Position numbers and translations under genes: made by a program
Part shown: in pieces, positions 1 to 37,490 of the stretch
Layout: each line of letters begins with the position of its first letter
Numbering within the stretch: position 1 is the stretch's first letter
The notes under the pieces: generated by a model
The model's database searches: none
What the model saw: only the letters and a program-made list of their open reading frames with translations
Told to the model about the DNA's origin: nothing
Assembly (NCBI GenBank): GCA_035264195.1
Contig: DATFQQ010000217.1
Location: forward strand, 2,028-66,027
Source of the DNA: Candidatus Sulfotelmatobacter sp.
GTDB lineage: Bacteria > Acidobacteriota > Terriglobia > Terriglobales > Acidobacteriaceae
Direction of reading: 5' to 3'
DNA length: 64,000 nt

Positions 1-207
1 AACCAAGACCAGACCGGCAAAGAAAATCAGCGGAAGGATAAGGAAAGCGAGAATTCCAATGTACGGATTACTGGCATGACCGCGAATCTGAAGAGGCAGG
101 ACAAACAGCCAGGAGATCAGTGCCGTCGCGAGCAACCCGAGACCCAGGAGACTTAGCCAATGTTGCGTCAGGAGGAACCAGGACGGCCTGTTACTTGCGA
201 CACTCAT
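1..207 (-). CDS. membrane protein, N-terminal fragment (gene runs off the window start)
   Basis: Read by hand; not in the ORF track. Reverse-strand ATG at 205-207. The translation MSVASNRPSWFLLTQHWLSLLGLGLLATALISWLFVLPLQIRGHASNPYIGILAFLILPLIFFAGLVLV stays open to position 1 and contains two hydrophobic helices. Function unknown. Confidence 0.4.
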   Translation of the reverse strand, partial: MSVASNRPSWFLLTQHWLSLLGLGLLATALISWLFVLPLQIRGHASNPYIGILAFLILPLIFFAGLVLV

Positions 208-417
208 GCGTAACCGCTGCACTCACGCGCAGGGTTAGGCTAGGGTAGACGGGACAATCACAGAGATGGACTGGCAAAAGTACTAATTGTGGAGGTATTC
301 GTTCTTGCTCAGGTGCACCCCAATCGAGAGGACGCCGCATGTACCTTGGTCTCGACCGAGTGTTGGCGAGCCAGGCGATTGAGTAAACCTTTTCTCATTT
401 CACCGTCACGCGAGATA

Positions 418-1911
418 ATGGCTGGGATGCGATGTCTCTTTCGGGTTGCGGTGGCTGGAGGCTTGCTCTTTGCCGCCATTGCATTACCAGCTCAATCGAG
501 TCGGGATCAAGTCAACGCGGTCACAGCAGCTTTGCGATCAGGCAAGTTTGTTGACGCGTTGCAGCTGCTGCAGCCGCTGGTACGCCAATTTCCGTCAAAC
601 TCTCAATTATTGACCCTGCAAGGCTTGGCGTATTCGGGAGATGGCCACAAGCAAGAGGCGCTCGTGTCTTTTCAAAGTGCATTGAAGAGTTCCCCAGACT
701 ACTTGCCGGCCCTGGAAGGGGCTGCGCAGATCGAGTATGAAAAGAACGGTCCGGAAGCCGCCGCGCTTCTACGGCGGGTTTTAAAAATTGCTCCGGAAGA
801 TCCAACGGCGAATGCAATGCTTGCCTCTTTGGCTTACAAAAGCCACAACTGTGCTGAGGCTGTATCTCATTTTGAAAAGAGTGGAGCGGCACTGCAGTCA
901 GAACCGGCTGCACTTCGGCAGTATGGAACGTGCCTGGCAAGACTGAAACGCTACGATCCGGCGATAGGAGTCTTTCAGAAGTTAATTGAACTGCAGGGCA
1001 ACGACCGGGAAGACCGACTCCGATTAGCCTCGTTGCAGATGTCTATCGGTAAACCTGGAGATGCGATTGAGATTCTTGAGCCCGCGCTGCAGGATCATCC
1101 CGATGCGGCCGTGCTGTCGTTGGCTGCGGCGGCGTATGAGGAGCAGAAAGACACTCCGCAAGCAGTGAAGTTACTGCATCAGGCTATTGTGGAGAACCCG
1201 CGGGATACCGGTCTCTATGTGCAGTTTGCGGATCTCTCGTTTGTGCATCAGTCGTTTCAGGTTGGTGTGGATATGATGAGCGCTGGCTTGAAACTGCAAC
1301 CCAATGCGGCTCCGCTGTACTTGGCGCGTGGGGTTCTGTACGTGCAATTGGCTGACTACGATCACGCCGAAGCTGATTTCGAGAAGGCTGAGGAATTGGA
1401 TCCGCAGCTTTCGGTAAGCGGTGCGGCCCGGGGAATGGTCGCCCAACAGAAGGACGATTTGGACAAGGCATTGGCTGTCGTTCGGGCCAAGCTGAGCAAG
1501 AAACCCGACGATGCGCTGCTGCTCTATGTACAGGCCGACATTCTTGTGCAGAAGAATCCTGATGTAGACAGTCCCGAGTTTAATCAGGCCATTGCTTCCG
1601 CTCAACGAGCCGTTAAGCTGCAGCCTGGACTGGTGGCAGCGCGCGACACCCTGGCGAAGTTATATCTGCAGGCCGACAAAGATCAGCTTGCAGTGGAACA
1701 GTCTCGGGAGTCGCTCCGGTACGACCCAAATGATCAAGTTGGGCTGTATCACTTGATTGTGGGATTGAGAAAGACCGGACAAAAAGAGGAGTTGCCCGCT
1801 CTATTGAAAAGACTCGCGGAATTGCGCCAGAAAGCTACTCGCGAGGAAGGCGAGCACAATCGTTACAAATTGATTGAGCAGACGGATGCGAGCGTGCCTG
1901 GCAAAGACTGA
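418..1911 (+). CDS. secreted tetratricopeptide-repeat (TPR) protein, paralog A
   Basis: ORF 289..1911. The internal ATG at 418 gives the Sec-type signal MAGMRCLFRVAVAGGLLFAAIALPAQS. The rest is helical TPR-like repeats. It is collinear over its full length with the ORF at 7534..8991. Confidence 0.85.
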   Translation: MAGMRCLFRVAVAGGLLFAAIALPAQSSRDQVNAVTAALRSGKFVDALQLLQPLVRQFPSNSQLLTLQGLAYSGDGHKQEALVSFQSALKSSPDYLPALEGAAQIEYEKNGPEAAALLRRVLKIAPEDPTANAMLASLAYKSHNCAEAVSHFEKSGAALQSEPAALRQYGTCLARLKRYDPAIGVFQKLIELQGNDREDRLRLASLQMSIGKPGDAIEILEPALQDHPDAAVLSLAAAAYEEQKDTPQAVKLLHQAIVENPRDTGLYVQFADLSFVHQSFQVGVDMMSAGLKLQPNAAPLYLARGVLYVQLADYDHAEADFEKAEELDPQLSVSGAARGMVAQQKDDLDKALAVVRAKLSKKPDDALLLYVQADILVQKNPDVDSPEFNQAIASAQRAVKLQPGLVAARDTLAKLYLQADKDQLAVEQSRESLRYDPNDQVGLYHLIVGLRKTGQKEELPALLKRLAELRQKATREEGEHNRYKLIEQTDASVPGKD

Positions 1912-1966
1912 ACTGTAATGTCGACGCAAAGTACAGAATCTACTTTCATTCAACACATTATTTCTT

Positions 1967-3742
1967 ATGAACAATACTTCACGCCGTTCCTTCATAAAGG
2001 GCACATTGGGTATGTTCGTGGCAGGTCATGGCATGGTCTCTTTAGCGCAGCAGGAAGGCATTGCATCGCGCGGAGTAAAAGCCCAGGCTCGTCCAGCAAG
2101 TTCGGGGCGGCCATTTAACGCGCATTTCGTGGACGTCGCCAAGGCAGCCGGATTGAATCAACCCACAATTTATGGAGGCGTGGAATCCAAGAAGTACATT
2201 TTGGAAGCGAACGGCTGCGGTTGCGCCTTTATCGACTACGACAATGACGGGTGGATCGACATCTTCCTGCTTTGTGGAACGCGACTTGAGGGCGCTCCGC
2301 CAGAAGCTACCAATCGCCTTTACAAAAACAACCGCGACGGGACGTTTACAGATGTGACAGAACGCGCAGGCCTGCACGCTACTGGCTGGGCGAACGGCGT
2401 ATGCATTGGCGATTACAACAACGATGGGTTCGAGGACATCTTCGTCACGTATTTCGGCCGGAATCGCCTCTACCGGAACAACGGCGACGGTACGTTCACG
2501 GATGTTACCAAGGCTGCTGGGCTGCTGAATTCGGAGACTCGCTGGGGAGCCGGGTGCAGCTTTGTCGACTACAACCGGGATGGGCATCTCGATCTTTTTG
2601 TCTCCAACTACATTCGATTCGACCTGGAAAAGGCGCCGGTGCCCGGCGAGGCTTCGACCTGCAACTGGAAGGGAGTCCCGGTCAACTGTGGTCCTCGCGG
2701 CTTACCCACGGGCCGGCACTTTCTATATCGAAACAATGGCGACGGGACATTCACCGATGTCAGCAAGGAAGCCGGCATTGCCGGCGCCACAGAAAGTTAC
2801 GGAATGACCGTGGTCGCAGCGGACTTTGACGAAGATGGATGGACCGATATCCTGGTGGCATGCGACTCGACGCCCAGTCTGCTTTTCATGAATAACCACG
2901 ATGGCACTTTCCGCGAAGAGGGCGTGGTGCGTGGTGTGGCATTGAGCGACGATGGCATGGAGCAAGCGGGAATGGGCGTGGGCATCGGAGACTACGATCT
3001 TGACGGTCATCTTGATCTGTTCAAGACGCACTTCATGGGCGACACATGCGGCATCTACCGCAATGACGGCAAGGGCAACTTCGATGATCGAACCAGAGCT
3101 GCCAAGATCGGCGTAGAGACTCGGTTTGTGAGTTGGGGCACCGGCGTGGCTGACTTCGATAACGATGGCTATCCGGATATTTTCATCGTAACCGGAAGTG
3201 TGTATCCGGAGGTTGAGCGCAAGTTGCCCGACTATCCGTATAAGACACCACGCATTTTGTTCCGAAATCTCGGAAACGGGACTTTTGAAGAGCTCGGGGT
3301 GGAGGTGGGGCCGGGAATCACGGAACCGCACTCCGGACGAGGGTGCGCTTTCGGAGACTTCGACAACGATGGCGACGTGGACATATTAGTCGTGAACATG
3401 AACGAACCGCCTTTGTTGTTGCGAAACGATCTCACTGGTAAGCAGGACTGGATCAAGATCAGACTGGAAGGTGTGAAATCAAACCGAAGCGCGATCGGCG
3501 CGCGCGTGCTGGTCCACTACGGCAACAAGGTGCAGGCACAAGCCAGGGTGAGCCAATCTAGTTACTACTCCTCAAATGATCCCCGCCTGCACTTTGGACT
3601 CGGAGACTGCAAGGTCGTGGATGTTGACGTTTACTGGCCCAATGGTCTGCATGAACGTTATAAAGGAATTTCTGCAAATCAAGTCCTTACTTTGCGCGAG
3701 GGAGCCAGTGCGCCAACCGGCAAAGGCATAACTCGCGACTGA
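1967..3742 (+). CDS. CRTAC1-family (FG-GAP/VCBS beta-propeller + ASPIC/UnbV C-terminal domain) protein, Tat-exported
   Basis: Twin-arginine signal MNNTSRRSFIKGTL. Seven DxDxDG-type Ca-binding loops (DYDNDGWIDIF, DYNNDGFEDIF, DYNRDGHLDLF, DFDEDGWTDIL, DYDLDGHLDLF, DFDNDGYPDIF, DFDNDGDVDIL). Six [10 protein letters not shown]-like strands. UnbV/ASPIC-like tail (RSAIGARVLV...NDPRLHFGLG). Confidence 0.9.
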   Translation: MNNTSRRSFIKGTLGMFVAGHGMVSLAQQEGIASRGVKAQARPASSGRPFNAHFVDVAKAAGLNQPTIYGGVESKKYILEANGCGCAFIDYDNDGWIDIFLLCGTRLEGAPPEATNRLYKNNRDGTFTDVTERAGLHATGWANGVCIGDYNNDGFEDIFVTYFGRNRLYRNNGDGTFTDVTKAAGLLNSETRWGAGCSFVDYNRDGHLDLFVSNYIRFDLEKAPVPGEASTCNWKGVPVNCGPRGLPTGRHFLYRNNGDGTFTDVSKEAGIAGATESYGMTVVAADFDEDGWTDILVACDSTPSLLFMNNHDGTFREEGVVRGVALSDDGMEQAGMGVGIGDYDLDGHLDLFKTHFMGDTCGIYRNDGKGNFDDRTRAAKIGVETRFVSWGTGVADFDNDGYPDIFIVTGSVYPEVERKLPDYPYKTPRILFRNLGNGTFEELGVEVGPGITEPHSGRGCAFGDFDNDGDVDILVVNMNEPPLLLRNDLTGKQDWIKIRLEGVKSNRSAIGARVLVHYGNKVQAQARVSQSSYYSSNDPRLHFGLGDCKVVDVDVYWPNGLHERYKGISANQVLTLREGASAPTGKGITRD

Positions 3743-3835
3743 GACTGCGGCCTGTCTTAACGATCAGTAAAGGCAGGGTGTTGTGTTCCGGTGCGTCGCC
3801 CTCCCCCGGTTAAGGGCCCATCCGAGAAAAAGCTC

Positions 3836-3863
3836 TTGACATCGAGCGGGCATACTATATACA
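3836..3863 (+). promoter_or_regulatory. sigma70-like promoter TTGACA-N16-TATACA upstream of TBDR gene
   Basis: TTGACA at 3836-3841 and TATACA at 3858-3863. The same hexamers and spacing occur at 37373-37400 upstream of the second TBDR. Confidence 0.5.
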
Positions 3864-3876
3864 TATTATCCGTTCC

Positions 3877-3890
3877 AGTAAACGTTTTCT
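3877..3890. promoter_or_regulatory. LacI-type palindromic operator AGTAAACGTTTTCT
   Basis: Inverted repeat centred on CG at 3883-3884, about 20 nt downstream of the -10 element and 65 nt upstream of the TBDR start. One of nine related sites in the window. Confidence 0.6.
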
Positions 3891-3954
3891 CGCTGGAGCG
3901 AGTCCCTGACGTCCGGCCTTTTTAATTAAGACGCGCAATATTTGGGAGGCACCC

Positions 3955-6900
3955 ATGCCAGGATGCATGTTGTCCCGCCGATCTGTTGGAGTACTTTCCG
4001 CGATTCTGTTGTTCGCAGCTACTGCCTTTGCACAATTCACCGCCAGCATTCAAGGCGTTATTCAAGATCAGAGTGGTGCCGGAGTCGGCAAAGCTACCGT
4101 GCAATTGTCGAACGTTGCGACGGGTGTGACGACCCTGACTACCTCAGACACGGATGGGAACTATCGCTTCGTCAGCCTCGCACCCGGCAAGTACAAAGTC
4201 ACTGCCGAGGCAGCCGGGTTTGCCAAGTCCGAGGCAGATGTCACCCTGCTCACCGAACAGAACCTGAACCTGCCGATAGCTCTAAAGGTCGGCTCGGTGA
4301 GTGAGTCGGTGGTGGTGAGCACTGAAGCTCCAGTGGTTGACACCGCGGATAGCCGTACCCACCTGACCATCGAGAATCAGGCAGTCGCGCAGTTGCCGAT
4401 CATTGGCCGGAACCTGGTCACGCTGGTTACGATGGCGCCGGGGGTTTCAGGTCTCGGAACCAGCACCTCGGGCAGCCCTGCTTCAGGCGTCGACAACTAC
4501 TCGACCGAAGAGCAGGTGGACGCGAGTGCAAACGGTCAAGGCCAGAACAACAATCAGTACGTCGTAGATGGCCTTGATGTGACGAGCGGAATCCGGCAGG
4601 GTGTTCTGAATCTGACTCCGCAACCGGAATCGATTCAGGAAACCAGCATTCAGGTGAATACATTCTCTACGGAGCACAGTCGCGCTGCGGGCCTGCAGAC
4701 TATATTCACAACGAGATCGGGGACGGATTCGTTTCACGGCTCTGCGTCGGATTGGTTCAATTACCAGGGGATGTACGCGAACCAGCACTTCGTCAGTTCG
4801 GCAGAAAGCAAGTACAAACCTTTCCACTCGAATAATATGGATTTCGCGATCGGCGGACCGATTATTCCGCACCACAACAGCTTTTTCTATTTTGCCGTGG
4901 AGCCGCTACGGTCATCGGCGAGCGCGGGCGGGCTAGTTACGTTTGCCGCTCCGGAATTTATCTCGTGGGCGCAAGCTCATCATGCGGGCACGGTGGGAAC
5001 ACACGTGCTCAGCACGTATCTTCCTACTGGCGTCGGGAATGTCAGTGCCGAAACGGCTGATGCTTACTTCGGGCAAGATGCGAGTGGCAACCCGATTTGC
5101 GGCACCGCTGCAGTGGACAACATTCCCTGCAACCTGCCGATGCAGGACACGGGTTCATTTGGCGCCACTCAAATCCGTAACGGCACACAATATTTTGCCC
5201 GAATCGATCAAGGTTTCAAGAGGGATCGAGTCTATGTCAGTTTGTTCCGGACGCTCTTGCAGACGGGTGCCGCATCTCCTATGCCACAGTTCTCAGCCTT
5301 GAACAATACGTGGCAAGTGGCGGGGCAGGCGTCGTGGACGCACACTTTCTCAGCGAATACGTTGAACGAGTTCACGGCCGGACAAAGCAGGGTCGAGGGC
5401 GTATTGGGCAGTGGCGCTAAAGATTACACAATACCATCGATCTCGGTGAATGGAATCAACGCTGACGGAGGCCAAGCCTACGGCGTAGGATTCGCCCAAG
5501 GTGACTTCATCCAGCATAACTATCACTGGCGTGATGTGCTCACCCACGTTAAAGGTACGCACACCTTAAAGTTCGGGTATGAAGGCTGGTATGGCGATGA
5601 CGTTGAGCCGTTCCAGGGCCCGTGGTCACAGCCAAAGTTTGCCTTCGACAACTTGCTCAAGCTAGCTCAGGATGCCCCTACCAACGAGAACGGGATTATG
5701 TACAACCCGGCCACCGGCCAACAGCAATTGTGGAATTGGGACGCGGCGGCGAGGACCTTCGGGCTCTTTGTGGAAGACACATGGAAAGCAAGGAGGAATC
5801 TGACGGTAACGTTGGGTTTGCGCTATGACGACAGCGGCAATCCCTGGTCAAAGAGCGATTCAACCGTGTTCGGAAACTTCTATCTGGGAACGGGCACCAC
5901 GACGGAGCAGCAAATCGCGAATGGATATGCCAAAGGCACGCACAATGCTCTGCTCCATTCTGTGAACAACCTGTTTAGTCCGCGTATTGGGGTTGCATGG
6001 GATCCTACAGGCAACGGAGACTGGGTAGTCCGCGGAGGTTTTGGTATCTACAACAATTGGCTGACTTCGGCCAATGTGCAGGAGGAATTCCGTGGAAGTC
6101 CGCCGGGCCTGGTGCTGCCTACATTTTTCGCGGGCGGTACGGCAACAGCAGATGCCCCGATCTTTGTCCTCGGCAACAGCGGCAAACCGCCTTTTGGTTT
6201 TACCTTCCCGACCTTCCAGGGTGGATTGAATGCTCAAGGAGGAGTCGTAGGAGCGAGTTTCGGAATCGGCGGCATCAATCCGTTGCTGAAATCGCCAACA
6301 GCCGATATCTGGTCGATTAGTGTCCAACGCAAGATCAGCCGGGTCTTTGCGGCGAGTGTTGGATACAGCGGATCACACTCGTACAACATTGTTGGCAACG
6401 GCAATTCGATCGGCAACGTGTCGTACGGCGTGGACATCAACGTGCTGCCCGGAGACTTGATCACACACCAGAGCAAGGTCCCAACTCGTCTGAATCCGAG
6501 TTTCGGGGGCATTCTCTATGCCGATAACAATCGGTACGGGAATTACAATGGGGTCTTCTTCGATATTAAGGGCCGATTCTCGCGTGGGTTCCTCGATTTC
6601 TCTTACACGCGCTCCAGTTCGAAGGATGATGGATTGGCATATCCTACGCCGACGAATCCGGCGCAGTACTATGCACCGTCGACTTTCGATGTACCGAACC
6701 GCTTTTCTTTGAGCTTCAATTATTCGCTTAGAGGATTGAACGACGGCAAAGGAGCAGTCGGATACCTCACCAGCGGGTGGGGGGCGAGTGGTACGACCAT
6801 CTTCCAATCCGGCTATCCGCTGATGGCGCGAAATCTTAATTCCTACAATCCGATTTGCGCTGACACGTCGGCGACCGCTGCCCCATGCCCATCCCAGGCA

Positions 6901-7305
6901 AATCCCGCGGTAGGTTACGCACCGGGGAGCGGTGACTACAACGCCGACGGTAACAACCTTGATTATCCCGACGCGGTCAGCTACCGTCAGTTGACGGACA
7001 ACAAGGCATGGTTGACAGGGGCGATTCCCGCAAGCGATTTTGCCGTGCCCACATTTGGGCAAGGTGGGAATGAGAAGCCATACCAGTTCCGTGCACCAAA
7101 CTTCTTTGAGACAAACGTCAACTTCTACAAAGACACGCGCATCACGGAGCGCGTAGCCTTCCAATTCCGGTTTGAGCTCTTCAACATCTTTAACCGGGCA
7201 AACTACGCGAACGTGGATGACAACTTGCCGGATTCATCGTTCGGATTGGCAACAGCCTCGCATGAGCCGCGATTCTGGCAGCTTGGAGGCAGGATTTCTT
7301 TCTGA
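3955..7305 (+). CDS. TonB-dependent outer-membrane receptor with N-terminal carboxypeptidase-regulatory-like domain
   Basis: GGGAGG RBS 8 nt upstream. Signal peptide ending AFAQ. CarboxypepD_reg-like beta-sandwich (IQGVIQDQSGAGVGKATVQLSNVATG...DGNYRFVSLAPGKYKVTAEAAGF). Long beta-rich body. C-terminal barrel signature ...QLGGRISF ending in Phe. Confidence 0.9.
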   Translation: MPGCMLSRRSVGVLSAILLFAATAFAQFTASIQGVIQDQSGAGVGKATVQLSNVATGVTTLTTSDTDGNYRFVSLAPGKYKVTAEAAGFAKSEADVTLLTEQNLNLPIALKVGSVSESVVVSTEAPVVDTADSRTHLTIENQAVAQLPIIGRNLVTLVTMAPGVSGLGTSTSGSPASGVDNYSTEEQVDASANGQGQNNNQYVVDGLDVTSGIRQGVLNLTPQPESIQETSIQVNTFSTEHSRAAGLQTIFTTRSGTDSFHGSASDWFNYQGMYANQHFVSSAESKYKPFHSNNMDFAIGGPIIPHHNSFFYFAVEPLRSSASAGGLVTFAAPEFISWAQAHHAGTVGTHVLSTYLPTGVGNVSAETADAYFGQDASGNPICGTAAVDNIPCNLPMQDTGSFGATQIRNGTQYFARIDQGFKRDRVYVSLFRTLLQTGAASPMPQFSALNNTWQVAGQASWTHTFSANTLNEFTAGQSRVEGVLGSGAKDYTIPSISVNGINADGGQAYGVGFAQGDFIQHNYHWRDVLTHVKGTHTLKFGYEGWYGDDVEPFQGPWSQPKFAFDNLLKLAQDAPTNENGIMYNPATGQQQLWNWDAAARTFGLFVEDTWKARRNLTVTLGLRYDDSGNPWSKSDSTVFGNFYLGTGTTTEQQIANGYAKGTHNALLHSVNNLFSPRIGVAWDPTGNGDWVVRGGFGIYNNWLTSANVQEEFRGSPPGLVLPTFFAGGTATADAPIFVLGNSGKPPFGFTFPTFQGGLNAQGGVVGASFGIGGINPLLKSPTADIWSISVQRKISRVFAASVGYSGSHSYNIVGNGNSIGNVSYGVDINVLPGDLITHQSKVPTRLNPSFGGILYADNNRYGNYNGVFFDIKGRFSRGFLDFSYTRSSSKDDGLAYPTPTNPAQYYAPSTFDVPNRFSLSFNYSLRGLNDGKGAVGYLTSGWGASGTTIFQSGYPLMARNLNSYNPICADTSATAAPCPSQANPAVGYAPGSGDYNADGNNLDYPDAVSYRQLTDNKAWLTGAIPASDFAVPTFGQGGNEKPYQFRAPNFFETNVNFYKDTRITERVAFQFRFELFNIFNRANYANVDDNLPDSSFGLATASHEPRFWQLGGRISF

Positions 7306-7331
7306 CACAGGGACAACATCAACCAACCAAC

Positions 7332-7367
7332 CCGGCCGCCTCGCCAGAAGCGGCCGGCCCTCTTTTG
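7332..7367 (+). terminator. intrinsic terminator-like hairpin
   Basis: CCGGCCGC (7332-7339) pairs with GCGGCCGG (7350-7357) and is followed by CCCTCTTTTGT. It lies 27 nt after the TBDR stop. Confidence 0.55.
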
Positions 7368-7533
7368 TACGCCGTTGTGAATGCCGCGTTTGATCTCGGT
7401 GACTGGGCCTACGAGTTGGATTGCTTCGATTAGTATGTACGTGGCGCGTTCGAATGTTGTGGAGCATTGGACGCCAACTACAATCTTGGGCCCATACCAT
7501 TCAAAGCGATTTCAATGGTTGCGAAGCTGGCGG

Positions 7534-8991
7534 ATGTTTCTCTGCATCGTCAGTCTGTTGCTTCCTTCTGCCTTCGGCCAGAGTCCGAAAGGCAGAGTCG
7601 ACGAGATTGCGACTGCGCTCCAATCCAAGAACTTTGATCGGGCTCTTGAACTTTTGCACACATCCCTACAGGAGATGCCATCGAACGGCGAACTCTGGGC
7701 GATGCAGGGAGCAGCGTATGCCGGGCAAGGAGATCCGAAACGAGCAGTCGCCTCTTTCCGACGAGCGCTAGAGCTCTCGCCAGACAACATTCCTGCTCTT
7801 CATGGTGCGATCCAAATCGAATACGACAACGGTGATGCGGCTGCGATCCCTCTATTGCAGCATTTGCTGAAGCTCCGGCCCGAAGAATCAATGAGTCATG
7901 CCATGCTGGCCGTCTTGGAATACCAACAGGGGAAATGCTCTTCTGCCATCGTTCATTTCGAGAAGGCTGGTTCGTTGTTCGATCAACAACTGCCCGCCCT
8001 TCATGCCTATGCGACCTGTTTGGTGAGACTTCGCCGGCTGGAAGCCGCAGCGGATGTTTTGCAGCGAGCCCTATCGCTTAACCCAGACGATCAGCGCGAG
8101 CGACAGCTTTTGGCTTGCCTGCAACTCATGATCAAGAAGCCTGAGGACGCACTTACGACTCTAACGCCGCTGCTTGCGGGCGATCATGTGGACTCTGGAA
8201 CGTTGGAACTTGCGTCCGGAGCATATGAGGATACTCACAATACGGAGAAGGCGGTGGATGCCCTGCGGCAGGCGATTTTGCTTGATCCGCAGAATGTGCA
8301 GTTGTATGTGGATTTTGCTGCGTTGTCAGCCGCGCACCAATCGTTTCAAGTTGGAATCAATGTGGTGAACGACGGGATCGGGCTACAGCCAAAAGCGGCT
8401 GCGCTATATTTTGCCCGCGGAATGTTGTATGTGCAGTTGTCCGATTATGAGAAGGCACAAGCCGACTTCGAACGCGCATACGAGCTGGATCCAACTCAAT
8501 CGTTGACCACCGCCGCCCAAGGCCTGTCAGCAGTCCAGCAAAATGATCTGGACGGCGCGCTCACAACCGTTCAGCAAAAGCTGGCGAGCCGGCCGAAGGA
8601 TCCGATATTGCTTTATCTGCAAGCCGATGTTCTTGTGCAGAAGGGAGCAGAGCCCGGCAGCCCAGAATTTCAAACCGCGATGCGTTCAGCCAAGACCGCA
8701 GTTGCGCTGCGCCCAACCCTCGGACCGGCTCGGGCGGTGCTCGCCAAACTTTACATTCAAGCAGGGGACTATCCTGAGGCCGCTGTCCAATGCCGAAAAG
8801 CATTAGAGATTGACCCTAAAGATCAAACCTCGCTTTATCATCTCATTCAGGCGCTGCGAAAGGGCGATAAGCAGAATGAGATTCCTGACCTGCTGAAACG
8901 CCTTGCTGTTCTTCGCCAGGAAGCCAGTAAAGAAGAAAGGGAACAATACCGCTACAAGCTGGTGGAAGGCGACACTCAGTCTCGGCAATGA
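7534..8991 (+). CDS. secreted TPR protein, paralog B of 418..1911
   Basis: ORF 7381..8991. ATG at 7534 gives the signal MFLCIVSLLLPSAFGQ. It aligns without gaps, by eye, to the 418..1911 product (for example QSFQVGINVVNDGIGLQPKAAALYFARGMLYVQLSDYEKAQADFERAYELDP versus QSFQVGVDMMSAGLKLQPNAAPLYLARGVLYVQLADYDHAEADFEKAEELDP). Confidence 0.85.
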   Translation: MFLCIVSLLLPSAFGQSPKGRVDEIATALQSKNFDRALELLHTSLQEMPSNGELWAMQGAAYAGQGDPKRAVASFRRALELSPDNIPALHGAIQIEYDNGDAAAIPLLQHLLKLRPEESMSHAMLAVLEYQQGKCSSAIVHFEKAGSLFDQQLPALHAYATCLVRLRRLEAAADVLQRALSLNPDDQRERQLLACLQLMIKKPEDALTTLTPLLAGDHVDSGTLELASGAYEDTHNTEKAVDALRQAILLDPQNVQLYVDFAALSAAHQSFQVGINVVNDGIGLQPKAAALYFARGMLYVQLSDYEKAQADFERAYELDPTQSLTTAAQGLSAVQQNDLDGALTTVQQKLASRPKDPILLYLQADVLVQKGAEPGSPEFQTAMRSAKTAVALRPTLGPARAVLAKLYIQAGDYPEAAVQCRKALEIDPKDQTSLYHLIQALRKGDKQNEIPDLLKRLAVLRQEASKEEREQYRYKLVEGDTQSRQ

Positions 8992-9088
8992 GTGTTGCCG
9001 ATTCCCTAACAGGCTGCGGAAAAAGTCCATCAGCCAGCCAACTACGACCACTGGGGCTAAAAGCCCGTAGTGAGTTCAAGTCAGTTAC

Positions 9089-9106
9089 GCGGCCCTGAAG
9101 GGCCGC
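9089..9106. terminator. GC-rich hairpin between convergent genes
   Basis: GCGGCCC-TGAA-GGGCCGC, a 7-bp stem. It is preceded by a smaller hairpin GGGCT-AAA-AGCCC at 9054-9066. There is no strong U-tract on either strand. Confidence 0.4.
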
Positions 9107-9165
9107 TCTTCCACGCTACTCCCAGCGTTCTCGACTTTTTTCGCAACCTGCCAAGGAGTCGCGAC

Positions 9166-11031
9166 TTACGACTTTAGCAACAAGTAGGTGCTGTAGTTCT
9201 CCTTATCGATGTTCATGAACGGCCGCATGGTTACACCGCTGCCATCCGCGGCATTGGCCAGCCAATCACCTTTCGCGTTGTTGGCTGGCCTTGCCTGTAA
9301 CAGGGCGTTTCGCTCGACGGTTGGTTGCGAATCGGCGACGGCAAACAAGACAACTGGACCATTCAATAAGGCGACGAGATTCGGGTGGTTGGCGTCGACA
9401 GTCTCAAGACGTAGAGGCATTGGCAGCTCCAGTTCGATCCGATCGCCGTCGCTCCATGTGCGCTTGATCGCCGCGAACGTTCCTGGTTGCACCGACTCGG
9501 AAGCACGTTTGCCGTTGACCGACAGCACTGCGTCGGCAGTCCATCCGGGAATGCGGACATGAATCGTGAAGTCAGACGGTTTCGTCGCTGACACTTGCAT
9601 CTTGACCGTGTTCGCAAGCGGATAATTTGTCTCTTGCGTCAAGCCATAGTGGCCGCCTCCGTCCGTCCACTGGACTTTGGAGGGCGTGAACAGGTTCACG
9701 CACACTCCGTCCGCCGAGCGGAGATAAGTGCTGATGTGGTAGTCGGCCGCCAACTGGGGGAATGTTCCTGAACAGCACGGCCATTTTTGTCCGTACCAGA
9801 CCTTTTTTCCGGTGTTGGCATAGTCGGAATAGTAGAACGAGGTGCCATCGGCTTGAATCGGCCAAGCTCCCAAAATTGTGTTGTAGAGGATGCGCTCCAT
9901 GCTGTCGCCGTATTTCGAATCCTTCGTGACGCGCAACAGATAGCGTGTGATCTTGAAGTGGCCGTAAGCGCCACACGGAGTTTCGAAGCTGGCGTGGGAG
10001 TCAGTCAGGCTGTTTCCGAGTTGTCCGGTTCCGGGCTCGCCGAAGCTCTCGTTGGGACCCCATCCGCCGGTCGCGAAGCTCTGCGTTGTTTGCAGCATTT
10101 CGAAGCCATTCTTGGCTGCGCGCAGGTGCTTCTCGCTTCCCAGAGTAATGTATGCCTGCATGGCGGAGCTGAAAGCATTCACATGGCTATAAGCGTGCTC
10201 GAAGGGCAACACGTTGTTGCCCTGAGACAGCGGGTTGAAGTAGGTATCGTCTTCCAGATATTTCTTGGCCATCTCACGATAAAACACGTTGCCAGTGCGT
10301 TGATACGCGAGGAAGAGATTCTCGGGTAGTGTGTAGGTCTCATCCCACGTGTACGCAGTGTCTTTGTGCGGACGGGATCTCTGCTCCTGGCGCGAGAGAG
10401 CTTTTTCGGGCAGATACGGGATGATTGCGTGCGTGAGTTTGTCGTGAATCTGCATCGCCAATGGATCGCGCGCATATTCGTGGGCATCGATCAGGCCGCA
10501 GGATAGTTTGTCGTAGGTGTAGGCGGGGAGCCGGTAGTCCACGAAGAACTTGGCTTTCGGGTCGAGGGTCTCGCCATAGCCTTTTACCAGGCGGTTGATC
10601 TTCGCGCGAGTCTCCTCAGAACCAGTGACGGCGTACGCTCGTGCCAGTCCGGATACGTATTGCCCGAAACTGTGGCCGGGAATGAAGCCGTGAAAATCGT
10701 TATGTTCAAGACTGAATCCGCCAATGTCGTACCAGCCGCCCATATCTGCGCCGGGCGCGGGCAGTCCAGCCATCTGGCGAAAGACTTTCAGCATGCTGTC
10801 ATCGTCCAGATGAAGGAAGCGAGCATGATTTTCTTCGAACTGGCGCTTCATCGGACCATCGAGCAACTGGACGTCGGAGTAGGGAAAGGTCGCCAACGCC
10901 GGGGTAATTACGACCGAGCCCTTAAGTTCCCGGGAAGAAGCCCAAGCGGGAAGGGAAGTGACAGCGTATGCCGAAGCGGTGATCGCCCCTGCGGACACAA
11001 GAAAACTACGACGCGTAACGGAAGAACTCAT
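9166..11031 (-). CDS. DUF1680/GH127-family glycoside hydrolase (putative beta-L-arabinofuranosidase-like), Tat-exported
   Basis: Twin-arginine signal MSSSVTRRSFLVSAG. GGAGG RBS. Family-typical E..C (FETPCGAY) and Cys-Cys (KWPCCSGTF) motifs. Collinear with the other two GH127-like ORFs. Confidence 0.8.
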   Translation of the reverse strand: MSSSVTRRSFLVSAGAITASAYAVTSLPAWASSRELKGSVVITPALATFPYSDVQLLDGPMKRQFEENHARFLHLDDDSMLKVFRQMAGLPAPGADMGGWYDIGGFSLEHNDFHGFIPGHSFGQYVSGLARAYAVTGSEETRAKINRLVKGYGETLDPKAKFFVDYRLPAYTYDKLSCGLIDAHEYARDPLAMQIHDKLTHAIIPYLPEKALSRQEQRSRPHKDTAYTWDETYTLPENLFLAYQRTGNVFYREMAKKYLEDDTYFNPLSQGNNVLPFEHAYSHVNAFSSAMQAYITLGSEKHLRAAKNGFEMLQTTQSFATGGWGPNESFGEPGTGQLGNSLTDSHASFETPCGAYGHFKITRYLLRVTKDSKYGDSMERILYNTILGAWPIQADGTSFYYSDYANTGKKVWYGQKWPCCSGTFPQLAADYHISTYLRSADGVCVNLFTPSKVQWTDGGGHYGLTQETNYPLANTVKMQVSATKPSDFTIHVRIPGWTADAVLSVNGKRASESVQPGTFAAIKRTWSDGDRIELELPMPLRLETVDANHPNLVALLNGPVVLFAVADSQPTVERNALLQARPANNAKGDWLANAADGSGVTMRPFMNIDKENYSTYLLLKS

Positions 11032-11062: not shown

Positions 11063-11064
11063 CA

Positions 11065-20972: not shown

Positions 20973-22043
20973 TCAGCGGGCGGGTGTGCCGGGAATCCTC
21001 CGCGGGGGGATGCGGTTGGCTTTCGATTGCGTGGCTGCGCCATTTCCACTAGCAGCAAGAGCGGTAGACCGGCGGAGCACCAGATTCGTCATCAACTCGT
21101 ACTTATGGTGCTCGTCGGATCGAGGTTCGTCGACTTCGTTCAACAATGCTTTGAATGCGATCTTTGCCAGTTCATGCTGCGACATTTGCACGGTCGTTAA
21201 TGGTGGGATCGTGAACTCAGCCAGGTGAATGTCGTCGAATCCAACCACGGACAACTCGTCGGGAACTTTGACGTTCAGCTCATACGCTTCACGCATCACG
21301 CCGATGGCCGTCATATCGTTTGAACAGAGAACAGCGGTTGGTGGCTGATCGAGAGCATGAAGTTCCCGGAAGGCTTTCATTCCGCCTTCCATCTTGTGAT
21401 CCCCGACGGCGATCAGGTCCGCGGAAAGTCCAATTTCCGTCATCGCAGTCTTGAATGCATCACGGCGGGCAGCAGCGGACTTCAGGTGTTGTGGTCCCGA
21501 GATAAACGCAATTCGCGCATGGCGCAAGGCCGCCAGGTGCTGCACGGCCTGCCGGATTCCGTTCAGGTAGTTGATTCGGATATTGGCGATTCCAGGGACA
21601 TCGGGACCGACGTCTACGAACACGAGAGGGACCTTCCTATCCCGAAGGTGCTCAATGAGAGACTCCTCCATACCGAAGGTTAAGATCGCCACGCCATCGA
21701 CCCGGCGTTCAATCATTCTTCTAACAGAGGATTCCATCCGCTTCGGGTCGTGCACGGTGGACGTCAGCAGGATCTCGTAATTGTTTTCGACGGCTAGATT
21801 CTCGAAGGTTTGAACAATCTCGGGGAAGAAGGGGTTCGTGATTTCGGAAACGATCAATCCAAAGATGCGGCTTCGGCCCAGGACAAGGGCACGAGCTTGG
21901 GTATTGGGATAGTAGCCGAGTTCGTCCACAACTCTCCAGACACGCTTTGCGAGTTGCGGATCCACCGTCGGGACACGGTTTATTGCCCTGGATACAGTTG
22001 CGGTGGAGACTTTGGCCCTCCGGGCGATCTCACGAATGTCCAT
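20973..22043 (-). CDS. LacI-family transcriptional regulator
   Basis: N-terminal HTH MDIREIARRAKVSTATVSRAINRVPTV followed by a periplasmic-binding-protein-like sugar-binding core. Confidence 0.9.
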   Translation of the reverse strand: MDIREIARRAKVSTATVSRAINRVPTVDPQLAKRVWRVVDELGYYPNTQARALVLGRSRIFGLIVSEITNPFFPEIVQTFENLAVENNYEILLTSTVHDPKRMESSVRRMIERRVDGVAILTFGMEESLIEHLRDRKVPLVFVDVGPDVPGIANIRINYLNGIRQAVQHLAALRHARIAFISGPQHLKSAAARRDAFKTAMTEIGLSADLIAVGDHKMEGGMKAFRELHALDQPPTAVLCSNDMTAIGVMREAYELNVKVPDELSVVGFDDIHLAEFTIPPLTTVQMSQHELAKIAFKALLNEVDEPRSDEHHKYELMTNLVLRRSTALAASGNGAATQSKANRIPPRRIPGTPAR

Positions 22044-26845: not shown

Positions 26846-28018
26846 TTACTCGATGATCTCGAATTGCTTGAGCCCAGATTCATTGATCGTGAGTCCGAGG
26901 CCGGGCGTGTGGTCATCGAGATCGATGCTTCCATTTACAGCTTTCGGCTCGCCGTCGAAGATGTACCAGAACAGCTCGTTTCCGACTTCAACGTCGACCA
27001 CAGGGAAATACTCCGCCATCGGCGAATTAAAGCTGGACATCACCAGATGGTAGTTGTGCATTTGTCCTGCATGCGGAACCACAGGGACGGAGTAAGCCTC
27101 GGCGAGTGCGGCGATCTTCCTCGCCTGCGTCAAGCCGCCCACGCGGTTGGTATCAAATTGGATGTAGTCCAGGGCATGTGCTGCCAGCAGTTCTCTGAAG
27201 CCGTAGACAGTGAACTCGTGTTCGCCGCCGGCAATCGGGATTCGTCCGTAAGACTTCAGTTCGGCGTAACCATGGATATCGTCTGGTACCACTGGCTCTT
27301 CAAGCCAGCGAAGATGGAACGGTTCAAGTAGCGGTAGCATTCGCTTGGCGTAATCGAGGGTCCATCCCATGTAAGCATCTGCCATTACATCGATTTCATC
27401 GCCCACTGTTTCCCGCACTGTCTGTACCAGTGCAATATTCTTCTGCATGCCCAGAGCGCCATCGGCGGGCCCCCAACCAAAGCGCAGCTTCATCGCTTGA
27501 TAGCCCTCACTCTTGTAGCGACTGGCCTCTGCTGCCAATTCCTTAAGTTCCACGCTATAAAGACGGGACGCGTAAACGGGAATGCGCGCTTTCGTCCTGC
27601 CGCCAAGCAGCCGAAAGACGGGCTGTTTGGCCGATTTTCCAATTAGGTCCCAGAGCGCGAGATCCACGGCGCTGATCGCAACCATGCCGATTCCCTTACG
27701 CCCGAAAGCCATGGTTTTGCGATACATGAGTTGCCAAAGACGTTCAACGTCCCAGGGAGCCTGGCCGATCAGGAGCGGCTTGAGATGCAAGTCGACGACG
27801 TGCTTCGTAACTTGTGGGGAAAGAGCCGCATTGCCGACGCCGACATGTCCGTCGTCGGTGAAAATCTCGACGATCAGCCAATCGTGGAACTTGAACGTTG
27901 GCATCGAGGCATCGGGCAGTTCGAGAAGGTCCATCGGATTCGTGCAGAAGTGCGGCGGGAGCGGGACGGTTTTTCCGCGCCAACGAACGACTCGAGTTCG
28001 AACTTCGTTAACTCTCAA
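26846..28018 (-). CDS. enolase-superfamily sugar-acid dehydratase (L-rhamnonate/L-fuconate dehydratase-like)
   Basis: Resembles E. coli RhmD by eye: ISAVDLALWDLIGKSAKQPVFRLLGG, MADAYMGW, LRWLEEP, IAGGEHE (metal ligands), VPHAG. The TTG start overlaps the MFS stop by 4 nt. Confidence 0.8.
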   Translation of the reverse strand: MRVNEVRTRVVRWRGKTVPLPPHFCTNPMDLLELPDASMPTFKFHDWLIVEIFTDDGHVGVGNAALSPQVTKHVVDLHLKPLLIGQAPWDVERLWQLMYRKTMAFGRKGIGMVAISAVDLALWDLIGKSAKQPVFRLLGGRTKARIPVYASRLYSVELKELAAEASRYKSEGYQAMKLRFGWGPADGALGMQKNIALVQTVRETVGDEIDVMADAYMGWTLDYAKRMLPLLEPFHLRWLEEPVVPDDIHGYAELKSYGRIPIAGGEHEFTVYGFRELLAAHALDYIQFDTNRVGGLTQARKIAALAEAYSVPVVPHAGQMHNYHLVMSSFNSPMAEYFPVVDVEVGNELFWYIFDGEPKAVNGSIDLDDHTPGLGLTINESGLKQFEIIE

Positions 28019-29250
28019 TGCGCAGCCTCGTAGTCGAGCGACTTCAAGTTCAGGGGATCAACTGCAGGAACGCAGACGAGAATGATCAGAAATGCAATCA
28101 CATGAAGCATTCCGGCGAGAGCGAACACTGTGCCGTAACCCATTCCATGATCCAGCAAGTAACCGACCAGTTCCCCAAAAGCGATTCCTCCCATCGCACC
28201 ACCGAATCCAACCAAACCCGCGACGGAGCCCACGACCTCCTGCGGAAACAGGTCGGCCGGCAAGACCATCACGAGAGTGGACCAGGACTGCTGCCCGAAA
28301 TACGCAACGCAGAAGAGCGCGATTGCCCAGGAAACGTCGACGTGCGGAATCAAAATGACGAAAGGCATTAGCGCAGCGCTGAGCCCGAGTGCAGTTTTTC
28401 GTGCTGCGCCGAGCGAAAACTGACGACCTACCAGGTAGCTGGAGAAACTCCCTCCTAACAAACAGCCGATGCCAGCAGCCGCGCTTGGCATCCATGCAAA
28501 AGCGCCTACCGCCTTAACATCAAAGCCGCGCGCGTCGTACAAATACTTCGGGAGCCAGAAAAGGTAGAAGAACCACGCTGCGTCGCTCAGGAATTTGGCT
28601 GTGATCAATCCCCAGGTCTCACGAATGGTGAACAAGTAAGTCCACGGCAAAGCTTGTGTTTTGGCGTTGGGCTGCCCAAAAGAAGGATGGTCGACCGCAG
28701 GCTTTTGAGGGAAATGTAATAATGTCCAGCCGATCGTCCAAAGCAAGCCAAAACTACCTGTCACTACGAAGATCCATCTCCAATTTGCGTAGAGGATGAT
28801 TGCCGCGATCAGAGGCGGAGCAATTACTGCTCCCACGGAAGTGCCGGCATTGATGATTCCCATCGCCGTGGCGCGTTCTCCCGCGCGAAAGAATTCCGCG
28901 ACTGCGCGTGTTGCAGCAGGGAAGCCACCACCCTCGCCCATCCCAAGCAGAAAACGGCTAACCATCAAGAGAGCGAAACTAGTAGCCAGAGCATGGCTCG
29001 CACAAGCGAGCGACCAGAACAGCATGATTACAGTGAAGCCGCGACGTGTGCCCAACAGGTCAACCAACTTGCCTCCACCCGCATACATTAGCGCGTAAGC
29101 AAACAAGAATGCAGACTGGAGGGCAGAGAACTGAGCGTTGCTCAGCGGTATGTCCCGACTGATCGAGTGAACGGCGACAGGCAAGGTCTGGCGATCGAGA
29201 TAGCTTATGGCGATGGCGAGGCTGATCAGGATCGCGAGTTGCCACCGCAC
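28015..29250 (-). CDS. MFS transporter (anionic sugar / sugar-acid type)
   Basis: About 12 hydrophobic segments. Typical MFS loop GKLVDLLGTRRG. First gene of the minus-strand operon. Confidence 0.85.
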   Translation of the reverse strand: MRWQLAILISLAIAISYLDRQTLPVAVHSISRDIPLSNAQFSALQSAFLFAYALMYAGGGKLVDLLGTRRGFTVIMLFWSLACASHALATSFALLMVSRFLLGMGEGGGFPAATRAVAEFFRAGERATAMGIINAGTSVGAVIAPPLIAAIILYANWRWIFVVTGSFGLLWTIGWTLLHFPQKPAVDHPSFGQPNAKTQALPWTYLFTIRETWGLITAKFLSDAAWFFYLFWLPKYLYDARGFDVKAVGAFAWMPSAAAGIGCLLGGSFSSYLVGRQFSLGAARKTALGLSAALMPFVILIPHVDVSWAIALFCVAYFGQQSWSTLVMVLPADLFPQEVVGSVAGLVGFGGAMGGIAFGELVGYLLDHGMGYGTVFALAGMLHVIAFLIILVCVPAVDPLNLKSLDYEAAH

Positions 29251-31624: not shown

Positions 31625-31695
31625 GCGTGCGTTGCGGTTTCGGTGTCGGGGCCATGAGCGATATACTTCGTCACACAGTGCCTTTACCTTTCCTC

Positions 31696-34376: not shown

Positions 34377-34383
34377 GCTCCTA

Positions 34384-35568: not shown

Positions 35569-35571
35569 CTG

Positions 35572-37305: not shown

Positions 37306-37372
37306 GAGTGCCTTCCAACGGGGCTGCTAAAGAGGGGTAACACATCTTGGAATGAGGGGCAAAATTTCATGG

Positions 37373-37400
37373 TTGACAACGGGACGGAATAAAGTATACA
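37373..37400 (+). promoter_or_regulatory. sigma70-like promoter TTGACA-N16-TATACA upstream of second TBDR
   Basis: TTGACA at 37373-37378 and TATACA at 37395-37400. Hexamers and spacing are identical to 3836-3863. Confidence 0.5.
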
Positions 37401-37414
37401 AAATCCCGCACTAG

Positions 37415-37428
37415 GGAAAACGTTTTCT
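37415..37428. promoter_or_regulatory. LacI-type operator GGAAAACGTTTTCT
   Basis: Centred on CG at 37421-37422, 21 nt after the -10 element, in the divergent CRTAC1/TBDR intergenic region. Confidence 0.6.
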
Positions 37429-37490
37429 GGCCGCCTCTGTTGGCGTATGCCGAGTCGGCTTGCAATTTCGCGACGTTGCAAGGAGGAGCT

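Follow-up and report, generated by a model that had tools for sequence, protein, structure and literature searches.

What is the role of a tetratricopeptide repeat (TPR) protein and a secreted propeller related to vertebrate CRTAC1 when both are encoded beside a very large TonB-dependent receptor (TBDR)? This question is raised by a stretch of 64,000 nucleotides from Candidatus Sulfotelmatobacter sp. (Acidobacteriota, Terriglobia; contig DATFQQ010000217.1, positions 2,028 to 66,027), hereafter the window, whose first 9 kb carry four such genes (Module 1). Acidobacteriota are among the most abundant soil bacteria and their uptake of plant polymers is poorly understood. To our knowledge, they lack SusD and encode many very large TBDRs, and we know of no established function for a bacterial member of the CRTAC1 family. 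A literature search retrieved no paper linking ASPIC/UnbV or CRTAC1 proteins to TBDRs. We favour, at about even probability, a periplasmic accessory role of the TPR-CRTAC1 pair in a TBDR pathway, within a LacI-controlled locus of the CUT type (carbohydrate utilization loci containing TBDRs) of this Terriglobia acidobacterium. Gene content, export signals, regulon, neighbourhood enrichment and the coupling of TPR and propeller genes are the observations on which this proposal is built.

The open reading frames (ORFs) of Module 1, all on the (+) strand, span 289/418..1911, 1967..3742, 3955..7305 and 7381/7534..8991. TPR1a (418..1911, 497 aa), upstream of the propeller gene, consists of TPRs throughout and is exported by means of a Sec-type leader that lacks a lipobox. 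CRT1 (1967..3742, 591 aa) is an FG-GAP Ca-loop propeller of the bacterial CRTAC1 family, exported by the twin-arginine translocation (Tat) route and ending in an UnbV_ASPIC domain. TBDR1 (3955..7305, 1116 aa) is an outer-membrane barrel protein of the acidobacterial 'TonB-dependent receptor' class, with a CarboxypepD_reg domain, a barrel and a C-terminal Phe. TPR1b (7534..8991, 485 aa), downstream of TBDR1, is an exported TPR protein paralogous to TPR1a. An earlier reading, made from the letters alone (the sequence-only reading), had described four adjacent co-directional genes with these domains and export signals; ORF calls, Pfam and translations agree with it, and its start codons M44 (base 418) and M52 (base 7534) yield Sec-type leaders on both TPR proteins. 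The paralogy that it claimed is also found, since TPR1a and TPR1b, both of multi-TPR architecture in Pfam, are 48% identical from end to end. Finally, its seven-bladed propeller with an ASPIC/UnbV tail is recovered: seven DxDxDGxxD Ca loops occur at regular spacing in CRT1, in agreement with seven blades, and Pfam identifies FG-GAP_3 (6 stretches, E 6.8e-58) and UnbV_ASPIC (PF07593, residues 509-575, E 2.1e-19). A second gene set at 31.6-41.5 kb contains TPR2a, CRT2a, TPR2b, CRT2b and TBDR2. Its propellers are 39-48% identical to CRT1, TBDR2 only ~27% identical to TBDR1.

The tight unit among these genes is the TPR-CRTAC1 pair, which is operonic, co-diverging and fused elsewhere; the TBDR link is looser. 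Using the three window propellers as queries and one genome per species, 80 loci were collected (49-84% identity), mostly from Acidobacteriota, plus two Verrucomicrobiia and single 'Chlamydiota' and Lichenicola metagenome-assembled genomes (MAGs). The loci were annotated with profiles of the window proteins; 48 have full flanks, that is at least 8 kb on both sides, and collapsing at 70% propeller identity leaves 20 lineages, 14 of them with full flanks. A TPR gene lies within 300 bp of the propeller in 32 of the 48 full-flank loci and is adjacent in 10 of the 14 lineages. TPR coverage reaches 29% in the first 2 kb around the propeller and drops to ~4%. In 35/50 cases, the adjacent TPR gene precedes the propeller gene on the same strand, with a median of 70 nt between its stop codon and the twin-arginine codons of the propeller. 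Divergence of the two proteins is correlated (Mantel r = 0.60, and 0.57 without the close orthogroup, neither value being reached in 1000 permutations). Moreover, 14 TPR/propeller fusions occur among the best 150 cluster representatives of the propeller family, with the TPR part N-terminal in six and C-terminal in eight; architectures were borne out by Pfam for P0416, P0424, P0426, P0442 and P0500, as well as for the cytochrome-propeller fusion P0479. Fusions in both domain orders are the strongest evidence that TPR and propeller would act together physically.

TBDR genes, in turn, are repeatedly placed near the pair. A TBDR is found within 3 kb of the propeller in 22/48 loci, within 10 kb in 37/48, and within 10 kb in all 14 lineages. 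TBDR coverage is 11-20% out to 8 kb from the propeller against a 2.6% background, a ~4-7-fold excess. Of 47 complete TBDRs, 32 lie within 500 bp of a propeller or TPR gene, where random placement predicts 9.9 and none of 2000 simulations reaches 32; the same-strand TBDR->TPR arrangement accounts for 9 cases in this test. Adjacency no commoner than chance, which the sequence-only reading had named as the outcome that would speak against it, is thus not what is observed. In MAGs whose TPR protein is only ~61-63% identical, the order TPR-propeller-TBDR-TPR is kept and the flanks differ. Only about half of the orthologous loci (L001, L002, L006, L011, L045) have a TPR1b counterpart on the downstream side of the TBDR. 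The genomic association of TPR, CRTAC1-like and TBDR genes across Acidobacteriota is therefore real. As a separate observation, Terracidiphilus MAGs carry an extra TBDR->TPR pair without a propeller (L002/L003:4512-9781 (-)), divergent from the orthologous four-gene module; the TPR family can therefore accompany a TBDR alone.

The regulatory sites bring the TBDR into a defined regulon. The palindrome G[TA]AAACGTTT[TA]C has 17 matches at up to 2 mismatches, against 3.9 expected, and none of 100 shuffles reaches 17; nine of the 11 distinct operator sites are intergenic. These sites stand just 5' of TBDR1 (3878), TBDR2/CRT2b (37416), GH127a, GH127c, GH51, FGGY, LacI and GH31/MFS (GH, glycoside hydrolase; MFS, major facilitator superfamily). 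GWAAACGTTTWC is likely the target site of the LacI protein, as predicted from the palindrome; the LacI-family regulator (20973..22043, -), with an operator at 22101 before its own gene, is the likely cognate repressor. The predicted operator of TBDR1, GTAAACGTTTTC (3878..3889, +), lies 77 nt 5' of the start codon. It follows a promoter-like region (3836..3865, +) made of TTGACA (3836-3841) and of an AT-rich -10-like stretch, TATATACATA, 14-18 nt further down. This region did not pass a strict consensus promoter scan. In ten aligned TBDR upstream regions, (C/A)TTGACA is found in 8/10 and the operator core AAACGT is invariant; the AT-rich -10-like stretch is present in the window's own TBDR1 upstream sequence. 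Across 12 orthologous loci, an operator with at most 1 mismatch occurs 4-104 nt 5' of the TBDR in 10, in tandem in some, and the remaining matches are all intergenic and precede GH, MFS, aldo-keto reductase (AKR) or LacI genes. The TBDR promoter and the LacI-type operator common to the glycosidase genes, both proposed earlier, could thus be mapped, with operator and -35 element conserved in orthologues. The tandem copies lie ~19-26 nt apart before the orthologous TBDR (L008:11870-11907, L011:12085-12115, L012:11866-11903) and may provide tighter or cooperative repression; the window has a single copy.

TPR1a is preceded only by a degenerate operator-like copy, GTAAACCTTTTC (383..394, +), centred on CC, not CG, 24 nt 5' of its start codon. 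Among the 12 orthologous loci, the operator predicted for the TPR-propeller pair is canonical in only one and degenerate in three; degenerate operator-like sites are predicted in the TPR-CRT intergenic regions of L005 and L045. Within Module 1, the TBDR alone is, on the predicted sites, firmly inside the LacI regulon. Directly 3' of the TBDR1 stop codon is an intrinsic-terminator-like hairpin (7332-7357) followed by CUCUUUUGU (whole element 7332..7367, +), with dG -20.1 kcal/mol and z = -2.95, 3 of 200 shuffles folding equally well; the four genes are therefore a cluster, not one operon. No significant hairpin was found between the propeller gene and the TBDR1 promoter (z = -0.97). Module 1 probably comprises three transcription units, [TPR1a-CRT1], [TBDR1] and [TPR1b]. 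Module 2 (29399..41528, both strands) is organised differently. The operator at 29314, common to the MFS sugar transporter gene (MFS_1/Sugar_tr; 28015..29250, -), is followed by GH31-TPR2a-CRT2a-TPR2b, apparently a single operon, and the pair there is therefore within the LacI regulon. Another operator, at 37416, is common to the divergent genes CRT2b (-) and TBDR2 (+).

CUT loci are defined by a TBDR, degradative enzymes, an inner-membrane transporter and a sugar regulator (PMC1790865). All four elements are present here: TBDR1, the GHs, the MFS carrier (28015-29250) and LacI (20973-22043) with predicted operators before TBDR1/TBDR2. The CUT locus is the closest known system, and the accessory TPR-CRTAC1 pair is a new element. 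The likeness to the CUT loci of Xanthomonas and Caulobacter (suxR-suxC-suxA-suxB; Blanvillain et al., 2007, PMC1790865) extends to the palindromic operator before the TBDR gene and to the absence of SusD. However, CUT loci as defined have no conserved TPR/CRTAC1-like accessory genes. The TBDR described here is also much larger, SusC-sized and with an N-terminal Ig-like extension, and the phylum is Acidobacteriota. Polysaccharide utilization loci (PULs) of Bacteroidota offer a second comparison. They share a large TonB-dependent transporter (TBDT) with a CarboxypepD_reg-type extension, an all-helical TPR-type protein encoded directly downstream and co-regulated carbohydrate-active enzymes, and periplasmic hydrolysis fits their 'selfish' uptake mode. 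On the other hand, ORFs of at least 200 aa contain no SusD/RagB Pfam family, and neither a SusC/RagA signature nor a conserved lipoprotein signal is seen. The regulator is of the LacI type instead of a hybrid two-component system (HTCS), SusR or an extracytoplasmic function (ECF)/anti-sigma pair, and the helical partner is a canonical TPR solenoid. As the sequence-only reading had stated, no SusD, TonB/ExbBD or anti-sigma domain occurs in the window, whether in ORFs of 200 aa or more or in the single large gap.

The window is rich in genes for the use of plant glycans and glycoproteins. Besides GH127 (three copies), GH51, GH39, GH31, GH27, GH38C, DUF5695 and an aldose epimerase, it encodes an FGGY kinase, AraD1/GguC, an MR_MLE dehydratase, the MFS carrier, LacI and a DPP-IV-type peptidase. 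GH127 is within the locus in 11 of the 12 orthologous module copies. The Module 1 neighbour GH127a (9166..11031, -; operator at 11050), a conserved one, belongs to the Tat-exported beta-L-arabinofuranosidase family. Tat leaders are found on GH127a, GH127b, GH51, GH31 and an uncharacterised 783-aa protein, i.e. on most exported enzymes of the window. Hydrolysis would therefore be periplasmic, after the substrates first cross the outer membrane. The most likely substrates are beta-L-arabinofuranosyl-rich plant glycans or glycopeptides of the extensin, arabinogalactan protein (AGP) or arabinan type. The substrates suggested earlier (arabinans, AGP, extensin) accordingly fit the conservation of GH127 and the L-arabinose and hydroxyproline catabolic genes of the window.

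Two gene runs relate to this catabolism. At 47772-54881, a GntR regulator gene precedes Pro_racemase-family, DAO, pyridine-nucleotide oxidoreductase, DHDPS-like and aldehyde dehydrogenase genes, which look like a complete hydroxyproline-to-2-oxoglutarate pathway. Its presence beside the DPP-IV-type peptidase and GH127 suggests that hydroxyproline-rich glycoproteins are exploited for their sugars as well as for their peptides. At 24947-29250 (-), genes for an NAD-binding dehydrogenase, AraD1/GguC (NF040903, E 3e-129), an MR_MLE-family dehydratase and the MFS carrier, all in one direction, are consistent with a non-phosphorylative (oxidative) L-arabinose route beside the FGGY-kinase route.

In the mechanism that we propose, TBDR1, as a stand-alone transcription unit, would import oligomers across the outer membrane. 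The Tat-exported GH127, GH51 and GH31 would trim them in the periplasm, the MFS carrier would move the sugars into the cell and the LacI repressor would release the entire regulon. TPR1a and the CRTAC1-like propeller, repeatedly placed beside TBDR genes in Acidobacteriota, would form a two-protein periplasmic unit on the TBDR pathway. This unit may accept the imported substrate or keep it bound, or it may be a scaffold at the transporter's periplasmic face (N-terminal extension or plug side). The variable TPR protein would be the adaptor and the conserved propeller the generic working part; the unit would not be a surface SusD-like lid. The substrate, the compartment and any physical contact with the TBDR are what we infer in this scheme.

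What the propeller itself may do can be approached from its fold. The AlphaFold2 (AF2) model of CRT1 has pLDDT 80 and pTM 0.86, and its best Foldseek match, along the entire chain, is murine CRTAC1 (9etn_A, E 1.6e-31, TM 0.69/0.74 over 583 columns). By sequence (phmmer), CRT1 matches 9etn only in the PDB (E 5.7e-21, 21% identity). Weaker fold matches include the fungal GlcNAc lectins AAL2 and PVL (TM 0.33-0.51), aldos-2-ulose dehydratase and integrin alpha. CRT1 thus shares with vertebrate CRTAC1 (ASPIC; PDB 9etn) and actinomycete UnbV / enediyne 'E4' a seven-bladed FG-GAP Ca-loop propeller and an UnbV_ASPIC beta-sandwich. It differs from vertebrate CRTAC1 in its 21% identity, its Tat export, its pairing or fusion with TPR proteins, its location beside TBDRs and the lack of an EGF-like tail by Pfam; no EGF family is among its Pfam matches, and CRT1 is the bacterial short form. 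NCBIfam contains no curated family for the propeller and gives only sub-threshold generic matches for the TPR proteins.

The export signals are uniform in both families. The CRT1 leader carries SRRSFIK, a Tat motif is present in 108/108 full-length propeller homologues and a lipobox in none of 120. The TPR family, a tight set of ~495-aa proteins, has a hydrophobic Sec-type leader in 101/115 members; loose lipobox matches occur in 9/115, with no conserved Cys. Since no lipobox is conserved and the propeller uses the Tat route of the periplasmic GHs, both proteins would most simply be soluble periplasmic proteins. Across modules, the propeller evolves most slowly (mean pairwise distances: propeller 0.48, TBDR 0.71, TPR 0.78), and it is 76-88% identical over the 120 best 90%-identity clusters. 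Among 92 unannotated neighbour ORFs profiled from more distant loci, the recurrent GHs are alpha-amylase family (6), GH63-like (6), GDE_C (3), trehalase (2), GH130 (2) and GH38 (2). This diversity of GH partners, together with haem contexts and strong conservation, argues that the propeller may be a generic working part, not a glycan-specificity element. At its mature N-terminus, CRT1 residues 29-52 (window 2051-2122; QQGIASRxVKPQARPAPSGRPF) are predicted to be disordered (pLDDT <50 up to residue 38), yet are highly conserved in the orthogroup, not in paralogues, and are a candidate linear motif, e.g. for the TPR groove. No single docking motif stands out in the TPR family, where conservation is spread over the entire solenoid.

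These data bear on the idea that TPR and/or CRTAC1 proteins are surface substrate-capture partners of the TBDR, a counterpart of SusD or of surface glycan-binding proteins. SusD is a TPR-like helical protein, and the TBDR1->TPR1b same-strand order (9 such cases) mirrors susC->susD in a locus that has no SusD; moreover, TBDR1 has an N-terminal Ig-like extension of the SusC kind (PF13715). The lectins PVL and AAL2 (PDB 2bwr, 4tqm), next to CRTAC1 among the fold neighbours, are seven-bladed FG-GAP-like propellers with Ca sites and show that such propellers can bind terminal sugars. Their match is, however, weak, and they lack UnbV_ASPIC and belong to another biological context. Against capture at the surface also stand the absence of a conserved lipobox from 115 TPR or 108 propeller homologues, the Tat route shared with the periplasmic GHs, and the association of the most conserved part with unrelated GH families and cytochromes, unlike a specificity-determining lectin. 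The lack of an NCBIfam SusC/RagA match and the TBDR-centred sample described below point in the same direction. We therefore consider surface capture very unlikely. The uptake core of the sequence-only reading is thereby retained for its three-family linkage, its regulon and its SusD-less locus, and not for the SusD-like capture role, against which the lack of a conserved lipobox, the Tat route, slow propeller evolution and the varied GH and cytochrome partners argue.

Several observations weigh against the periplasmic accessory role that we favour. Loci from related species are not fully independent, and 11 of the 48 propeller loci have no TBDR within 10 kb. Propeller-TBDR divergence is correlated at Mantel r = 0.28 outside the close orthogroup (7/1000 permutations), and no TBDR-like region occurs in the 35 mid-length (700-1,400 aa) propeller-family representatives tabulated. 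The canonical operator that precedes TBDR1 is missing from the TPR-propeller pair of Module 1. Its periplasmic placement is deduced from signal peptides alone, and onward secretion would be possible. A reverse test was also made with a metagenome scan seeded by a 2-sequence alignment of a same-class TBDR that does not adjoin a propeller gene. It yielded 80 TBDR-centred loci (39-90% identity) from a sister TBDR subfamily. None of them has a propeller or TPR gene within 500 bp; a propeller is found anywhere in the flanks in 10/80 (5 of the 27 whose flanks reach 6 kb or more on each side), in every case as a TPR->propeller pair 2.3-5.4 kb upstream. Background coverage in this sample is 2.6% for TBDR, 2.2% for TPR and 2.2% for the propeller. 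With partners nearly absent, many TBDRs thus either do not need the pair or are served by it in trans. The proposal that TPR and CRTAC1 proteins are general partners of 'unusually long TBDRs' finds no support in this test, and the TBDR link is looser than that within the pair.

A further explanation, in keeping with the negative reverse test, would be that there is no functional link, and that TPR-CRTAC1 pairs and TBDRs, two abundant expanded families of Acidobacteriota, are co-localised only via shared regulation or genome-island dynamics. Both families are among the expanded paralogue families of Solibacter (PMC3174227). The propeller family is very large indeed, with 79,310 (E<=1e-3), 45,011 (E<=1e-10) and 14,785 (E<=1e-30) cluster representatives at 50% identity, and Module 1 is split into separate transcription units. 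Such mere co-localisation is nevertheless very improbable in our view, given the placement test (32 against 9.9 expected, 0/2000 simulations), the TBDR coverage excess and the TBDR within 10 kb in all 14 lineages, a gene order that is kept though flanks change, and the Module 2 pair inside the LacI regulon.

Haem contexts also weigh against the accessory role. Multihaem cytochrome c families were found in 10 neighbour ORFs of the distant loci, with 5-7 CXXCH each and a propeller, TPR or TBDR gene as direct neighbour. Five overlap TPR-classified ORFs immediately upstream of a propeller gene, and 5 of 7 tested cytochrome ORFs have an N-terminal multihaem domain and a C-terminal TPR region. In P0479, nine CXXCH precede the propeller in one polypeptide. 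CRTAC1-family genes are, in addition, embedded among hydrazine-synthase-like haem protein genes (PMC12758564). These contexts therefore point to roles apart from glycan import. The multihaem (C554/C7/c3/MtrC-like)-TPR proteins are encoded right beside propeller or TBDR genes at L074:7784-9979, L078:7676-9871, L062:17474-19741, L075:10598-12976 (-) and L080:1952-4120, and also at L044:8337-9938, L054:976-2685 (-) and L082:1322-3043 (-). Among the hosts, one MAG belongs to the Verrucomicrobiia and the others to the Acidobacteriota. In an orthologous Module-1 locus, two GH127 genes flank a 920-aa ORF with nine CXXCH (L012:3505-6267 (-)).

It can then be proposed that the propeller is a periplasmic enzyme or redox-linked protein acting on imported compounds, with the TPR protein as partner or electron conduit, and that TBDR adjacency reflects a shared pathway. 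Cytochrome-TPR fusions directly upstream of propeller genes, the P0479 fusion and the hydrazine-synthase-like neighbourhoods speak for this, as do the slow evolution of the propeller, a Tat route common to enzymes and the sugar-acting propeller enzyme aldos-2-ulose dehydratase among the fold matches. A haem gene is even found divergent from TPR1a in this organism: the first 69 codons of a NapC/NirT-type multihaem cytochrome c gene (1..207, -), cut at the window edge, encode two hydrophobic segments. Contigs with identical TPR1a/CRT1 contain the full divergent gene, of 454-478 aa, which matches PF03264 Cytochrom_NNT; the protein has 5 CXXCH plus CGSSCH and two N-terminal hydrophobic segments (L087:1257-2621 (-), L086:5590-7026 (-)). 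It would be a membrane-anchored cytochrome of the quinol-dehydrogenase type within a glycan locus, and beyond its gene lie GH77 and GH13 alpha-glucan genes. This gene was, however, rejected as a conserved part of Module 1, because the orthologous loci do not have it and its product is no relative of the cytochrome-TPR proteins. An enzyme or redox role is likewise disfavoured by the absence of a catalytic domain or motif recognised by Pfam or NCBIfam and by the absence of CXXCH from the Module 1 and 2 proteins. The three window paralogue propellers have no invariant His in common, and no obvious metal or cofactor site other than the Ca loops was seen in them. Vertebrate CRTAC1 is, moreover, a matrix and binding protein, not an enzyme. 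On balance, such a role seems unlikely, although it ranks next after the accessory role. Two related ideas were dropped: a NosZ-like metal-centre propeller was rejected for lack of an invariant His among the paralogues, and the Tat signal was set aside as a sign of a cofactor-bearing enzyme, most exported GHs of the window being Tat substrates as well.

The identity of TBDR1 as a TonB-dependent transporter is a further point at issue. Pfam recognises CarboxypepD_reg (PF13620, E 7.8e-19) and OMP_b-brl_4 (PF25183, residues 252-1109, E 7e-100). The protein has an AFA|Q leader, and a C-terminal Phe is found in 120/120 homologues. These homologues bear the name TonB-dependent receptor, and about half match PF00593. 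After the N-terminal Ig-like domain comes ESVVVST, which to the eye resembles SusC-type TonB boxes, and the putative plug segment contains, also by eye, the plug-like motifs LPIIGRN...APGV and YVVDGLDV. No Pfam Plug is detected in residues 113-280, even at E<=10, and PDB sequences searched with the profile of TBDR1 homologues and with TBDR1 alone gave no TBDT relative; both results count against the accessory role. In the PDB search, the N-terminal Ig-like domain alone matches, to NOMO2. The AF2 model, from a shallow alignment, has pLDDT 37 and is unusable, also to the detriment of the proposal. NCBIfam (E<=1e-5) has no family for TBDR1 or TBDR2 and gives no SusC/RagA (TIGR04056-type) signature; the PF13715 N-terminal extension domain is the sole SusC feature common to TBDR1. 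We treat TBDR1 as a TBDT whose identification is incomplete in one feature, the plug.

In another explanation, the pair would be a dedicated folding or assembly aid for the large TBDR barrel. The lipoproteins of the beta-barrel assembly machinery (BAM) include a TPR protein, BamD, and a propeller, BamB. The parts list is thus alike, and so is an action on outer-membrane barrels from the periplasm, in keeping with the periplasmic signals and the enrichment beside TBDR genes found here. The TPR protein also shows weak, sub-threshold similarity to BepA and other envelope TPR factors. Yet there is no above-cut-off homology to BamB or BamD, and the proteins described here are non-lipoprotein, locus-specific paralogues instead of a single essential set. 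Most TBDRs of the class have no cis-encoded pair, while cytochrome fusions and TBDR-less occurrences do not fit a chaperone, and we know of no precedent for a per-transporter chaperone. Barrel assembly is thus highly improbable.

A more ambitious version can be formulated, in which TPR-CRTAC1 would be an unrecognised periplasmic machine wired to TBDT importers and, in some lineages, also to multihaem cytochromes, as a third architecture of TBDT-dependent uptake beside SusCD and plain CUT systems, or with the propeller as a new class of periplasmic enzymes or redox proteins for imported organic matter. We regard it as doubtful; if true, a family of at least 14,785 sequence clusters, to which the bacterial counterparts of a human cartilage/neural protein belong, would gain a first function. 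If the pair acts with the TBDR, as in the accessory role that we favour, it would represent a new accessory module for outer-membrane nutrient import. If it is an enzyme or redox module, a first function for bacterial CRTAC1 homologues would follow. In each case, the TPR-CRTAC1 pair is a concrete testable unit from a very large uncharacterised family (45,011 cluster representatives). The locus itself offers a regulated, phylogenetically conserved large TBDR linked with beta-L-arabinofuranosidases and with hydroxyproline catabolism, and hence with plant cell-wall glycoprotein turnover.

Some minor features complete the picture. Giant proteins of the propeller family, P0361 (4828 aa), P0362 (3928 aa), P0450 (7066 aa) and P0428 (6020 aa), show 29-42 separate propeller-query matches each and presumably consist of very many FG-GAP/VCBS repeats akin to the CRTAC1 module. 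An Rfam scan of positions 1-12500 found no RNA element. A GC-rich hairpin (9089..9106; dG -15.9 kcal/mol, z = -2.88) separates the convergent TPR1b and GH127a genes. Downstream of TBDR2, between the DPP-IV peptidase and GH27 genes, the 783-aa protein with a Tat signal (MDRRTFL...; 44207-46558, +) is without a match in Pfam and NCBIfam and is a candidate for a new pathway enzyme. The 1.1 kb (57390-58534) that separate GH127c from a GFO/IDH/MocA oxidoreductase gene hold no convincing gene, just short ORFs that overlap one another on the two strands, and may be a decayed gene or a non-coding region. Finally, a 78-aa Cys-rich ORF at 59697-59933 (-) (MATCEICGNQYDKCFDV...CSHCSCRI...FCCAHCAKAAG) looks, from its residues, like a small metal-binding protein.

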